The position numbers were made by a program, and so were the translations under genes. This document shows, in pieces, positions 56,745 to 60,808 of a DNA stretch of 64,000 nt. Origin of the DNA: Escherichia coli (GTDB lineage Bacteria > Pseudomonadota > Gammaproteobacteria > Enterobacterales > Enterobacteriaceae). Numbering within the stretch: the first letter of the stretch is position 1; every line of letters starts with the position of its first letter. A model generated the notes under the pieces. That model was given only the letters and a program-made list of their open reading frames with translations. It made no database searches and was not told the DNA's origin. The DNA is taken from the NCBI RefSeq assembly GCF_044324875.1, contig NZ_CP172185.1; one strand, given 5' to 3'.

Positions 56745-56800
56745 ATCAGCCCGGTCTTGTAGGCCTGATAAGACGCGTGAGCGTCGCATCAGGCAAGGCA
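56745..56800. repeat. REP element between cysI and cysH (GCCTGATAAGACGCGTGAGCGTCGCATCAGGC)
   Basis: Canonical REP palindrome. Confidence 0.55.
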
Positions 56801-56815
56801 AACAGTGAGGAATCT

Positions 56816-57550
56816 ATGTCCAAACTCGATCTAAACGCCCTGAACGAACTGCCGAAGGTAGATCGCATTCTGGCGCTGGCAGAAACTAACGCCGAACTGG
56901 AAAAACTGGATGCTGAAGGCCGCGTTGCCTGGGCGCTGGATAATCTGCCCGGTGAATATGTACTTTCTTCCAGTTTCGGCATTCAGGCGGCGGTGAGCCT
57001 GCATCTGGTGAATCAGATTCACCCGGATATCCCGGTGATCCTGACCGATACGGGTTATCTGTTCCCGGAAACCTACCGCTTTATTGACGAGTTAACGGAC
57101 AAACTCAAGCTCAACCTGAAAGTGTACCGCGCTACCGAAAGCGCCGCCTGGCAGGAAGCGCGCTACGGCAAACTGTGGGAGCAGGGTGTTGAAGGCATTG
57201 AAAAGTACAATGACATCAACAAAGTCGAACCGATGAACCGGGCGCTGAAAGAACTGAATGCGCAAACGTGGTTTGCTGGCCTGCGCCGCGAACAATCCGG
57301 CAGTCGCGCCAATTTACCGGTGCTGGCAATTCAGCGTGGCGTATTTAAAGTGCTGCCGATTATCGACTGGGATAACCGAACGATATATCAGTATCTGCAA
57401 AAACATGGCCTGAAATATCATCCATTATGGGACGAAGGATATTTATCCGTCGGTGATACCCATACAACCCGTAAATGGGAACCCGGCATGGCGGAAGAAG
57501 AAACGCGTTTCTTTGGCTTAAAAAGGGAATGTGGGCTGCACGAAGGGTAA
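56816..57550 (+). CDS. cysH: Phosphoadenosine phosphosulfate (PAPS) reductase CysH
   Basis: 244 aa from [14 protein letters not shown]; ORF track's upstream extension to 56663 runs through the REP and is implausible. Confidence 0.95.
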
Positions 57551-57815
57551 AATATCGTACCGCTTAATAAACGTCTCTGTCTGAAAAGATGGGGGCGTTT
57601 TTATTTTGCGAGCAGCATTCCTGATTTTAAACGTGAACGCCGCTGGAAGAATTATCAAGTATAGAATGGCGTTGGGTGCTTGAGGCTGTCTGGCGTTAAG
57701 CATTCGCGAGGTTCCAGATGGACAAAAGCCCCAGGCGATATTTCTATCAACCTGAGGCCAGCGTTCGAACCTAAGCAATTCGAATGTTAGTCTCTTCTTT
57801 GCAGGGAGGCAAGAC

Positions 57816-57968
57816 ATGCTGACAAAATATGCCCTTGTGGCAATCATCGTACTGTGTTGTACAGTACTGGGATTCACGCTGATGGTAGGCGACTCGTTGT
57901 GTGAGTTGAGTATCAGAGAACGTGGTATGGAGTTTAAGGCAGTTCTCGCTTACGAATCGAAGAAGTAG
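57816..57968 (+). CDS. Hok/Gef-family type I toxin (HokE-like), 50 aa
   Basis: [50 protein letters not shown] is near-identical in pattern to HokE ([31 protein letters not shown]...KAVLAYEPKK); single TM plus conserved Cys; 3' GC hairpin CGCGGGGG-UAAAA-CCCCGCG at 57975-57994; below the ORF-track size cutoff. Confidence 0.8.
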
Positions 57969-58319
57969 CCACCACGCGGGGGTAAAACCCCGCGTATTGA
58001 ATTGTGATGGTTTGGTCTCCTGCACCCTTTTTTAATTTATATTGTTTATGTGAATATTATGCCTATGTTTATTATTCATATATATTACGGATGAAAATTA
58101 TTTGATTATTCATAATGTGCAAAATGGCATCTGAATCGATCGCAGTTTGGCATTCGAATCGATCATGATTTGGCATCCATCTCCGATCACAGTTTGGCAT
58201 CACAATCGATCACGATTTGGCATGCTTCCGATCATTGATTGGCATCCTGCCAGTCACTCCGGGAATTAACTCTTTTCACCACAGTCTCCATTGCCGTGTT
58301 TAAACCAGTGGAGACGTCA

Positions 58320-59885
58320 ATGTCCAGAAAGAGAAAATCCAGGAGCACTATGGAAACCTGTTTTAAGATCCTTCAGCTCAAGTTCGACAAGAAGCTGACT
58401 AACCGTTGTATCGGACTGACGTTACACATCAGCGCCTCAACCGTTTTTGAGGTTCTTGCCCGCTTCAAAGCCTCTTCTCTGTCATGGCCATTACCTGCTG
58501 ATATATCCCATGACACGCTGGAGAAACTCATTTTTCCGCCCAAAGACACCTTTGCATCAGAGCTTGTAATGCCTGACATGTTGTACTTCGATACGGAAAT
58601 GAGAAAACCAGGTGTGACGCGGCAACTGTTGTGGATGGAATACAAGGCACAGGCGGGTAACAAAGCGATGGGATACTCGCACTTCTGCCGTTGCTACCGG
58701 GAGTGGAAAAAAACGCGACGTCTCTCCATGCGCCAGGAGCATCGTGCCGGCGAAAAGCTTTTTATCGACTTCTGTGGTCCTACGGTTCCTGTTATTAATC
58801 CGGACACCGGTGAGATACGCCGCGTGGCAATCTTCGTGGCCGTAATGGGGGCGTCCAACTATACCTACGTTGAAGCGTGCGAAGGTCAGGACATGATGTC
58901 ATGGTTAAATGCCCACAGCCGTTGCCTGACCTTCCTGGGCGGCGTACCGAAGCTGCTCATCCCCGATAACCTCAGAAGCGCAGTGAAAAAGGCCGATCGA
59001 TATGAGCCTGTCATCAACGACAGTTATCAGGCACTGGCTGAGCACTATGGCACGGTTATCATCCCGGCCCGACCACGCAAACCTAAAGATAAACCAAAAG
59101 CAGAAAACGGCGTCCTCATCGTTGAACGATGGCTTCTTGCCCGCATCCGTAATGAAACCTTCCACACGCTCAGGGCGCTGAATGCGCGCCTTAGGGAGTT
59201 ACTGACAGACATGAATAACCGGCCAATGAAGGGGTACGGCAATCAAACCCGTGCAGAACGCTTCCGCATACTGGATGCGCCAGCACTCTCTCCGCTGCCT
59301 CTGGCACCTTATGAATACACGGAATACAAAGCTGTGAAGGTTGGCCCTGACTACCACGTTGAATATGCCCGTCACTGGTACTCCGTTCCACACGAACTGG
59401 TCGGTCAGCGTCTGTCACTGAAGGCGGGGCAGTCGGTGGTACAGCTCTGGCACAAGGGGCAGTGTGTGGCGCAACATCCGCGCAGCACACATGAATATAA
59501 ACACACAACCAATCCGCTTCACATGCCAGAGCGCCACCGGCAGCACGGGACATGGACACCGGAACGCCTGATCGAGCAGGGAAAACGTACGGGCCCGTCC
59601 ACAGGCCGGGTGGTTGAATCCATGCTGAAGGCAAAACCCCATCCGGAACTGGCTTATCGTGCAGTTCTGGGGCTGCTGGCACTTCAGAAAAAATACGGCC
59701 CGGAACGGCTGGAAAAGGCCTGTTACGTTGCCCTGCACTATAACGCCCCTGACAGACGCTTTATCGACAATCTGCTGCGTCACCATCGGGAGAACCTGGA
59801 GCTTCCATTATCCCGCCAGGGCGAACAACATCCGGCATATGCTTCAGAGCATGAAAACCTGCGTGGTCCGGGCTACTACCACTGA
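58320..59885 (+). CDS. istA: IS21-family transposase IstA (HTH plus DDE integrase core)
   Basis: 521 aa from ATG 58320 (SD ggagacg); integrase-core-like region (FIDFCGP...VAVMGASNYTYVEACE). Confidence 0.85.
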   Translation: MSRKRKSRSTMETCFKILQLKFDKKLTNRCIGLTLHISASTVFEVLARFKASSLSWPLPADISHDTLEKLIFPPKDTFASELVMPDMLYFDTEMRKPGVTRQLLWMEYKAQAGNKAMGYSHFCRCYREWKKTRRLSMRQEHRAGEKLFIDFCGPTVPVINPDTGEIRRVAIFVAVMGASNYTYVEACEGQDMMSWLNAHSRCLTFLGGVPKLLIPDNLRSAVKKADRYEPVINDSYQALAEHYGTVIIPARPRKPKDKPKAENGVLIVERWLLARIRNETFHTLRALNARLRELLTDMNNRPMKGYGNQTRAERFRILDAPALSPLPLAPYEYTEYKAVKVGPDYHVEYARHWYSVPHELVGQRLSLKAGQSVVQLWHKGQCVAQHPRSTHEYKHTTNPLHMPERHRQHGTWTPERLIEQGKRTGPSTGRVVESMLKAKPHPELAYRAVLGLLALQKKYGPERLEKACYVALHYNAPDRRFIDNLLRHHRENLELPLSRQGEQHPAYASEHENLRGPGYYH

Positions 59886-59901
59886 CAGAAGGAACAACAG
59901 T

Positions 59902-60657
59902 ATGAGTGATAACCTGTTAAACAAACTGACCCAACTGAAACTCCCGGCGATGGCCGGGAGCCTGATACGGCAGCGGGAAACGCCTCAGACCTACGACGAA
60001 CTGTCGTTCGAGGAAAGGCTGACGCTGCTGGTTGATGACGAGCTTCTGAGCAGGGAAAACAGCCGTGTGGCACGGTTGAGAAAAAATGCCGGCCTGAAAT
60101 ACCAGGCAACACCGGAAGGGCTGCGCTATCCGGCCTCAAGAGGTCTGCGGGCTGAACAGATGAGAGAACTGCTGAACGGCCACTACATAACCCACAGGAA
60201 AAACCTGCTGATAACCGGTCCGACAGGATGTGGCAAGAGCTGGATAGCCAATGCGCTGGGCGAACAGGCATGTCGACAGAAACACAGCGTCCGGTACTGT
60301 AGAACCGGGCGATTACTGGAACAACTGGCTCAGGGACGTGTTGATGGCAGCTGGCTGAAATATCTGAAACAGTTGCAAAAAATACAGGTTCTAATCCTGG
60401 ACGATCTGGGGCTGGAACAGTTAAGTAACGCCCAGTGTAATGACCTTCTGGAGCTCATAGAGGATCGTTACGGACAAAGCAGCACGATAGTGGTAAGCCA
60501 GTTCCCGGTAGATAAATGGCATGGTCTGATGGAGAACCCAACAACAGCAGATGCCATCCTGGACAGACTGGTACATAACTCACACCGAGTGGTCCTTCAG
60601 GGAGAGTCACTGAGGAAAAATCCCCCGGTAGTGGAAAGCAGCGAAAAAACGCGTTAA
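59902..60657 (+). CDS. istB: IS21-family helper ATPase IstB (Walker A GPTGCGKS)
   Basis: 251 aa from ATG 59902 (SD aaggaac); AAA+ IstB family. Confidence 0.85.
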   Translation: MSDNLLNKLTQLKLPAMAGSLIRQRETPQTYDELSFEERLTLLVDDELLSRENSRVARLRKNAGLKYQATPEGLRYPASRGLRAEQMRELLNGHYITHRKNLLITGPTGCGKSWIANALGEQACRQKHSVRYCRTGRLLEQLAQGRVDGSWLKYLKQLQKIQVLILDDLGLEQLSNAQCNDLLELIEDRYGQSSTIVVSQFPVDKWHGLMENPTTADAILDRLVHNSHRVVLQGESLRKNPPVVESSEKTR

Positions 60658-60808
60658 AAAGCGGTAGAAAAAGTTAAGTTCCCGGTTGATCGAATGGATG
60701 CGAATCGCTGATCGGACTTCGATGCCAATCCGTGATCGAATAGAGCGGAATACGCACATAATGTAAATATTTTATTGAACGATATATATCACAGATAATT
60801 TTTAATAT

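Follow-up and report, generated by a model that had tools for sequence, protein, structure and literature searches.

The Escherichia coli genome fragment analysed here, a 64,000-nucleotide stretch (the window; NCBI RefSeq assembly GCF_044324875.1, contig NZ_CP172185.1), carries between cysH and cas3 a short open reading frame (ORF) that a sequence-only reading had taken for an intact HokE-like type I toxin gene with an antisense Sok RNA, at a site where E. coli K-12 keeps only the remnant sokX. The questions raised by this locus are whether a complete toxin-antitoxin module is present, which hok gene it contains, and how closely it follows the hok/sok system of plasmid R1. The core of the earlier proposal is supported by sequence comparison: with a probability of about 90%, the locus is the chromosomal hokX/sokX system (hokG), structurally complete in the window. 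The system is already known, being annotated in RefSeq, named in UniProt and published, and is best described as real but ordinary.

The hok ORF (57816-57968; Table 1) is complete and its product is identical to RefSeq WP_000956458.1, named 'Hok/Gef family protein' by the Prokaryotic Genome Annotation Pipeline (PGAP). At 50 residues it is shorter than the 60-residue default of the ORF listing. An exact-sequence look-up placed this peptide on at least 1000 contigs, and UniProt labels it 'Putative protein HokG' (HOKG_ECO57). WP_000956458.1 is annotated at the same site, in the order cysH-hok-cas3, in AF40 and O157:H7 (Z866), and between cysH and iap in the cas-less uropathogenic E. coli (UPEC) strain EcPF40. 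The gene order of the window (cysH end 57550, hok, cas3 start 60809) is that of AF40 and O157 Z866, with the hok ORF beginning 266 bp past the cysH stop and cas3 starting 2.84 kb after the hok stop, in agreement with the roughly 2.8 kb first estimated; the locus lies where hokX is expected, directly after cysH and before cas3, or before iap in cas-less strains. In the literature, hok-5 of adherent-invasive E. coli (AIEC), located in the cysH-iap region, has been equated with hokX of E. coli B (PMC7232551), and 90% of 237 UPEC strains carry hok and sokX beside cysH, the rest having sokX alone as in K-12 (PMC12736100). The module is no different from hokX/sokX of E. coli B, O157:H7, AIEC and UPEC, which has the same locus and the same position relative to cysH; what the window strain adds is an ISSso4-type insertion sequence (IS) between the module and cas3.

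Among 5426 complete E. coli genomes, used to count prevalence, 5425 matched the 560-bp region downstream of cysH at least in part, and 3371 covered 80% or more of it. A single chromosomal copy of the hok coding sequence occurs in 4220 (78%), with 99% identity or more in 2923 of these, and about 22% have none. The module is uninterrupted through fbi in roughly 62% of the genomes, and in about 16% the coding sequence is present but homology ends before fbi. The description of the region as a typical accessory mosaic was therefore overstated, as hok occupies a fixed position in most genomes and only the IS insertion is specific to this strain.

K-12 does carry only a sokX remnant (b4701) at this site, as first stated. 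Its leader, Sok promoter and SokX agree with those of the window fully or almost fully (96.8% over 251 bp), and the match extends up to the hok ATG (57818), from which point K-12 diverges into unrelated sequence before cas3. The K-12 remnant has no hok coding sequence, 3′ hairpin or fbi, and the loop of its target hairpin reads CCCAAACAA, compared with CCUAAGCAA in the window.

Comparison of the peptide with the HOK_GEF profile (Pfam PF01848) gave 39.1 bits (E = 5.7e-10; gathering cutoff 22 bits) over positions 1-42 of 42. The Hok/Gef family traits, namely a length of about 50 amino acids, a single hydrophobic helix near the N terminus and a Cys conserved in the periplasmic tail, are all found in the peptide, with a single hydrophobic stretch at residues 6-24 (mean Kyte-Doolittle 2.76) and Cys29 kept in 75 of 75 homologs, which bears out the original description of a 50-codon Hok/Gef ORF. 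Pairwise Nei-Gojobori analysis of the window ORF, as reference, against 73 homologs gave a median ratio of nonsynonymous to synonymous substitution rates (dN/dS) of 0.125, with 0.357 as the highest value, from which it follows that the Hok peptide itself, and not only the RNA, is under purifying selection; such selection tells only that the peptide matters.

The likeness to HokE also held in direct comparison with the K-12 Hok sequences taken from the annotated reference genome, in which 39 of 50 residues (78%) are identical to HokE, 24 to HokA, 19 each to HokC and HokD, and 16 to HokB. K-12 hokE/sokE is the closest paralog, with the same leader architecture and the same UACG at codon 46. The high identity, together with the label 'protein HokE' that some sources attach to the exact peptide, might suggest that the locus is a moved or duplicated hokE and not a distinct paralog. 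This is scarcely credible, as K-12 hokE lies between ybdK and entD, whereas the window gene is single-copy and, in thousands of genomes, fixed in its place between cysH and either cas3 or iap, and species representatives have the two types at different sites (a single Escherichia genome, for instance, contains L011 and L042). The spacing between the Shine-Dalgarno (SD) sequence and the ATG differs as well (GAC, versus TATAAAC in hokE), the 4 extra nucleotides of hokE changing the frame relation such that its upstream ORF is in frame with hok; K-12 hokE additionally carries IS186 in its 3′ hairpin.

The RNA elements of the distinct hokX/sokX locus were assessed in a comparative set of 72 non-identical full-length loci (from Escherichia, Klebsiella, Kluyvera, Citrobacter, Pseudocitrobacter, Scandinavium, Phytobacter and other genera). 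The Rfam sok model (RF01794) matched the leader end to end at 57674-57831 with 111.7 bits (E = 6.6e-26; gathering cutoff 59 bits); this match falls on the hok-mRNA strand, and the Rfam consensus itself spans tac to the hok AUG. The minimum free energy (MFE) fold of 57674-58036 has -128.9 kcal/mol (z = -3.8; 0 of 100 shuffles as stable) and its two ends pair, giving the long-range tac/fbi closure that is a defining trait of hok/sok mRNAs, so that the covariance and fold searches for Sok, tac and fbi elements that had been proposed as checks were positive. The RNAalifold consensus of the 72 sequences likewise contains the tac/fbi pairing (columns 1-6 with 394-399), and tac and fbi each keep their sequence and their position in over 70 loci across genera, with GGGTGCYTGAGGCT of tac likewise kept in over 70. 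In the Rfam structure tac also pairs with ucb, GGG-GCUU with AAGCCCC (57726-57732), as an alternative to tac/fbi, and GCCCCAGG can be read from the sequence as complementary to CCUGAGGC (57751-57758).

The consensus structure of the 72 loci holds 14 covarying pairs. The stem formed by the leader SD and dcb covaries (AU in 52 and GC in 14 at columns 102:144), the 5′ hairpin shows two-sided changes in up to 24 sequences at one pair, and the arms of the Sok-target stem, compared by eye with no formal count, change together (for example GTTCGAA/TTCGAAT versus ATCCAAC/GTTGGAT). The GC hairpin first placed at 57975-57994 is real and forms the core of a stem (57974-57981 with 57988-57995) that is supported by covariation (CG 44 and UA 20 at one pair, AU 45 and UA 7 at another, of 72); by analogy with the 3′ stem-loop of R1 (PMC9841398), it is expected to be the terminal stem-loop of the processed, translatable mRNA. 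The alternative tac/ucb and SD/dcb pairings and the stable 3′ stem-loop, further defining traits of hok/sok systems, are thus all found. A YUNR U-turn (CUAA) in the target loop, considered as a Sok recognition motif, was dropped because the loop sequence varies across the family. For the hok promoter, the -10 pattern TAgaAT is kept across the 72 loci (TAGAAT in 38, TAnnAT in most others), and since the upstream hexamers are not conserved in this set and yield no conserved -35, the promoter is probably weak. Transcription is inferred to terminate at the T-run 58028-58033; homology in cas-less strains stops at 58034. Every regulatory element that can be computed, save a canonical mok, is present and uninterrupted in the window copy.

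A cis-antisense Sok with its own promoter and terminator hairpin, another defining trait, is predicted from the sequence. The SokX fold opens with a single-stranded 5′ tail, after which come a terminator-like hairpin and a U-run (-23.8 kcal/mol, z = -2.4), and the Sok promoter occurs in 72 of 72 loci with an identical -35, a spacer of exactly 17 nucleotides and a -10 fitting TAnnAT. Conservation of the -35 is confounded because it overlaps the invariant hok SD, whereas that of the spacer and the -10 pattern is not. The antisense Sok suggested for the leader is supported by this promoter and by the mapping of K-12 sokX to the window (57 of 59 bases). In O157:H7 EDL933, RNA-seq and ribosome-profiling reads have been reported on sok_15/sokX at a low level (PMC5331693).

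Plasmid R1 hok/mok/sok shares with hokX/sokX the Hok/Gef peptide, tac/fbi, ucb, dcb, the leader GAGG, a cis-antisense Sok and a post-processing 3′ stem-loop (PMC9841398), and a mechanism can be proposed by analogy with R1 (PMC9841398). A weak promoter would yield a stable full-length mRNA (~57674-58033) that is locked shut by tac/fbi pairing, with ucb sequestering the leader GAGG. Slow 3′ trimming to the GC hairpin would remove fbi, allowing tac to switch to ucb and the leader to open. SokX, transcribed from the conserved promoter overlapping the hok SD, would pair with 57718-57776 and lead to mRNA decay, such that Hok would be made only upon loss of SokX and would insert in the inner membrane as a single helix. 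We lean, with some reserve, towards hokX/sokX following the R1 mechanism in this detail. Unlike R1, hokX is chromosomal, its leader is ~70 nucleotides shorter (GAGG at +81 versus ~+105 in R1), and a 70-codon mok, a start codon following the GAGG and a separate terminator hairpin beyond fbi are all absent.

A number of results weigh against the identification as a complete hokX/sokX module or against its R1-like operation. The peptide scored below the cutoff with two NCBIfam models, the HokA equivalog NF007290 (53 versus 89) and the Hok subfamily NF007279 (39.5 versus 73), and for this reason is not HokA and falls outside the NF007279 subfamily model; the HokA label given by the best NCBIfam model is misleading, direct comparison placing HokE much closer. 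A consensus promoter scan flagged neither the hok nor the Sok promoter, and the promoter assignments consequently rest on comparative conservation; the Sok promoter was missed because it matches the consensus at only 8 of 12 positions. The terminator scan found no local hairpin after fbi. The tac/fbi core is so nearly invariant (a single compensatory CG to UA change, in locus L084) that covariation says little on this pairing.

The remaining points of this kind concern mok. In R1, mok starts ~8 nucleotides after the leader GAGG and its translation to the hok SD is mandatory; mok start-codon mutations or upstream stops abolish Hok translation (PMC9841398). A canonical mok frame, starting after the leader SD, covered by Sok and translated through the hok SD, was not found in the window, where no ATG, GTG or TTG lies 5-11 nucleotides after GAGG 57754-57757 (which is followed by CCAGCGTTCGAAC). 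A start codon at this distance is present in 11 of the 72 loci and in no Escherichia locus; the 11 are Klebsiella and Kluyvera loci with ATG or GTG 7 nucleotides after the GAGG. All three frames are closed by stops between the Sok target and hok, except for the 12-codon ORF at 57784-57822. This short ORF lends weak support to the overlapping mok frame first proposed for the leader, and the canonical start is absent. The start of the ORF falls outside the Sok duplex, by 8 nucleotides, and it lacks an SD. Its ATG is found at the corresponding column in 62 of 72 loci (ATA in 10), and the invariant bases 57784/85/88/89 are T1, A2, A5 and T6 of the opposite-strand Sok -10 box, while the G varies, so that conservation of this ATG needs no coding explanation; ATG 57784 as a conserved mok start was downgraded, its conservation being accounted for by the Sok -10 box. 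In loci with the canonical ATG after GAGG, the 57784-equivalent ATG sits in another frame. The 12-codon ORF is a possible, not an established, minimal mok.

A second candidate start, ATG 57718 (SD GAGG 57709), opens a frame that ends at TAA 57772 in the window, AF40 and O157 and is open in K-12. Reading this TAA as a premature stop in mok, which in view of the R1 data would have pointed to silencing, was rejected because the ATG occurs in only 10 of 72 loci and is not conserved. Across the 72 loci, stops interrupt this frame at differing places in nearly all genera, and the open frame of K-12 is the derived state. L013 (Shigella flexneri SFBU0723, ~2359-2715), which has an intact hok and the K-12-type target loop, is the only locus with the 57718-equivalent frame open up to the hok start.

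The lack of a canonical mok start allows another explanation, that the locus is transcribed and regulated by Sok but Hok is translationally silent in Escherichia, the module being intact in structure and disabled in function through loss of the mok start. The same silencing was argued by Pedersen and Gerdes for K-12 hokB and hokD, as cited in PMC7232551. The relatives in Klebsiella and Kluyvera, in which an ATG lies exactly 7 nucleotides after the GAGG, and the R1 experiments, in which mok start mutations or premature stops eliminate Hok translation (PMC9841398), are in line with this explanation. We nonetheless consider it unlikely. The low median dN/dS applies also among the loci without the canonical start, and 61 of the 72 loci, from many genera, share its absence, which is the norm of the family and not a lesion; the short ORF, ending in AUGCUGA, does cross the hok SD, and codon 46 of the 75 homologs (TACG in 70, TGCG, encoding Cys, in 5) looks like an editing site with a hardwired alternative, which would be of consequence only for a Hok that is translated. 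As the trait is common to 61 of 72 relatives and the peptide is under selection, we read the mok-less layout as a variant arrangement; since it is so widely shared, the mok result lowers the likelihood that hokX/sokX works exactly like R1, and not its membership of the family.

No TACG other than the one at codon 46 occurs in the hokX mRNA. In a 2025 study of clinical UPEC, hokG is among the new UACG-embedded adenosine-to-inosine (A-to-I) editing sites, with 10-37% editing in 10 isolates, and hokE is edited Y46C at GCUUACGAA, at the same UACG (PMC13017025). As far as that text goes, the site is explicit for hokE and editing levels only are given for hokG; the primers used there for hokG are exact matches to the window, at 57818 and 57958. 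Because codon 46 has the only TACG in the mRNA, the edited hokG base is most likely A57952, giving Y46C. The hokG editing in clinical isolates shows that hokG is transcribed in natural isolates. Editing is suggested to supply a second Cys to Hok. E. coli hokB/sokB is similar in that a Hok-family toxin undergoes Tyr to Cys recoding by A-to-I editing at UACG (PMC13017025); however, few residues are shared with HokB (16 of 50), and the edited Tyr of hokB coincides, in our own reading of the alignment, with the first Cys position conserved in the family, in contrast to hokX, which has its UACG at codon 46 and already encodes Cys29. HokA and HokB also carry Cys at position 46.

The IS21-family insertion noted downstream of hok was also confirmed. 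Its boundaries were obtained by alignment to the uninterrupted AF40 locus, and it has the features of the family: istA followed by istB (IstA with rve and Mu-transposase C domains; IstB matching IstB_IS21 at 204 bits), repeated TTTGGCAT-type motifs at both ends and a short target duplication. The PGAP annotation is 'IS21-like element ISSso4 family'; 100%-identical copies occur elsewhere, full-length ISSso4-type copies are found in 225 genomes, and the junction between hokX and the IS was found in 0 of 5426 complete E. coli genomes. An IS beside a hok gene is a known route of inactivation (PMC7232551), and with the element starting at 58119, 150 bp from the hok stop as first described, the insertion could have inactivated this locus, as IS186 or IS150 did at K-12 hokC, hokE and hokA. 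That is very improbable here, as the insertion point lies 85 bp past fbi and the T-run that follows it (58014-58033). The conserved module ends at 58034 in cas-less strains, where nothing downstream belongs to it, and the IS is therefore placed outside the toxin-antitoxin module, which it does not disrupt. The insertions credited with disabling K-12 hok loci have another position: at K-12 hokC, K-12 hokE and hokX of WG5, IS186 interrupts the GGGG-N6-CCCC hairpin in its 3′ arm, ~20 bp past the stop, with the same junction in all three (…CC|CATAAGCGCTAACTTAAGGG; …CC|CATAAGCGCTAACTT), and removes fbi, whereas hairpin and fbi are both intact in the window. The IS186-bearing hairpins are at ~2907-2930 of L090, ~1490-1510 of L005 and ~1730-1752 of L006. 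WG5, with its E. coli B-type hokX allele, was the one genome examined among the ~16% that lose homology before fbi, and its IS186 in the 3′ hairpin distinguishes that allele from the window copy.

Table 1 Coordinates of the hokX/sokX module and adjoining features in the window (SD, Shine-Dalgarno; MFE, minimum free energy; IS, insertion sequence)
Feature	Position	Strand	Basis or remark
hok mRNA -10 box TAGAAT	57662-57667	+	Predicted; 7 nt before tac G, -12 to -7 relative to tac G
Full-length hokX mRNA	57674-58033	+	Predicted, tac to T-run after fbi; Rfam start, fold and homology boundary
tac (GGGUGCUUGAGGCU)	57674-57687	+	mRNA 5′ end; pairs with fbi in MFE fold and RNAalifold consensus
SokX antisense RNA	57718-57776	-	K-12 sokX (b4701) maps at 57 of 59 bases
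ucb / anti-SD (AAGCCCCAGG)	57726-57735	+	Partner of tac in open form, of leader GAGG in closed form
Leader GAGG	57754-57757	+	Counterpart of R1 mok SD; pairs with dcb in Rfam structure
Sok-target hairpin	57761-57787	+	9-bp stem, loop CCUAAGCAA; Rfam structure
12-codon ORF	57784-57822	+	Only upstream ORF across hok SD and start; TGA overlaps hok codons 2-3 (AUGCUGA)
Sok promoter	57784-57812	-	-35 TTGCCT (57812-57807), 17-nt spacer, -10 TAACAT (57789-57784), start ~57776
dcb (GUCUC)	57790-57794	+	Pairs with GAGGC 57754-57758; Rfam structure, covariation
hok SD (GGAGG)	57805-57809	+	6 nt before ATG; invariant in 72 of 72 loci
hokX (= hokG) coding sequence	57816-57968	+	ATG start, 50 codons, 50 amino acids
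UACG motif, codon 46 (TAC, Tyr)	57951-57954	+	Inferred hokG A-to-I editing site, Y46C
3′ GC hairpin (ACGCGGGG-GUAAAA-CCCCGCGU)	57974-57995	+	Stem 57974-57981 / 57988-57995
fbi (GGUCUCCUGCACCC)	58014-58027	+	Complementary to tac; fold, conservation, consensus
T-run after fbi	58028-58033	+	Likely transcript end; sequence and homology boundary
8-bp target duplication CATAATGT	58111-58118 and 60757-60764		Flanks the IS
ISSso4-type IS21-family element	58119-60756	+	2638 bp; context, outside the toxin-antitoxin module

On its other side, the IS sits 52 bp upstream of the cas3 ATG (60809) and separates this gene from most of the AT-rich sequence that natively precedes it. The ends of IS21-family elements can provide outward-directed promoter elements, and the insertion could change cas3 expression. 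The cas-less strains (EcPF40, locus L089, compared with window 57034-58118) lack the entire type I-E cas locus and have hokX directly beside iap; the boundary of this deletion or replacement lies exactly at the end of the hok module (58034), the module being retained when its neighbour is lost. Upstream, the cysH terminator hairpin lies at 57569-57600, and an Rfam ctRNA_p42d match at 57567-57609 (26 bits versus a cutoff of 50) is simply this hairpin. A REP-like palindrome between cysI and cysH (56763-56795) gave a sub-threshold match to Rfam naRNA4 (33.6 bits versus a cutoff of 59.5).

Several species, among them Pseudocitrobacter faecalis, Klebsiella oxytoca, K. michiganensis and K. grimontii, hold two or three HokX/HokE-type loci per genome (including locus groups L014/L020/L079, L033/L040, L039/L047 and L044/L049), so the subfamily is multi-copy outside Escherichia. 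Decayed copies were also seen: L086 (Shigella flexneri SFBU1023) has a hok frameshift past residue 31, and in L088 (E. coli ECMA0423) only a fragment matching residues 17-42 is left.

As a discovery the hokX locus matters little, being annotated, named and present in about four-fifths of E. coli genomes. The GGGG-N6-CCCC 3′ hairpin is a repeated IS186 landing site at which hok loci have been disabled in laboratory strains, and the window copy is untouched there. It is a tentative suggestion that HokX/HokE-type loci, the majority of the subfamily in Enterobacteriaceae, work without a canonical mok, Sok acting by mRNA decay alone or via the 12-codon leader ORF. If so, the start codon of that ORF would lie within the Sok-target hairpin, in its 3′ arm, and would double as the Sok -10 box of the opposite strand, and the arrangement would be a variant of the textbook R1 coupling, alongside Tyr46-to-Cys editing as a possible further layer of control. 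That most HokX/HokE-type loci are without the mok start that R1 requires may be of interest to specialists.

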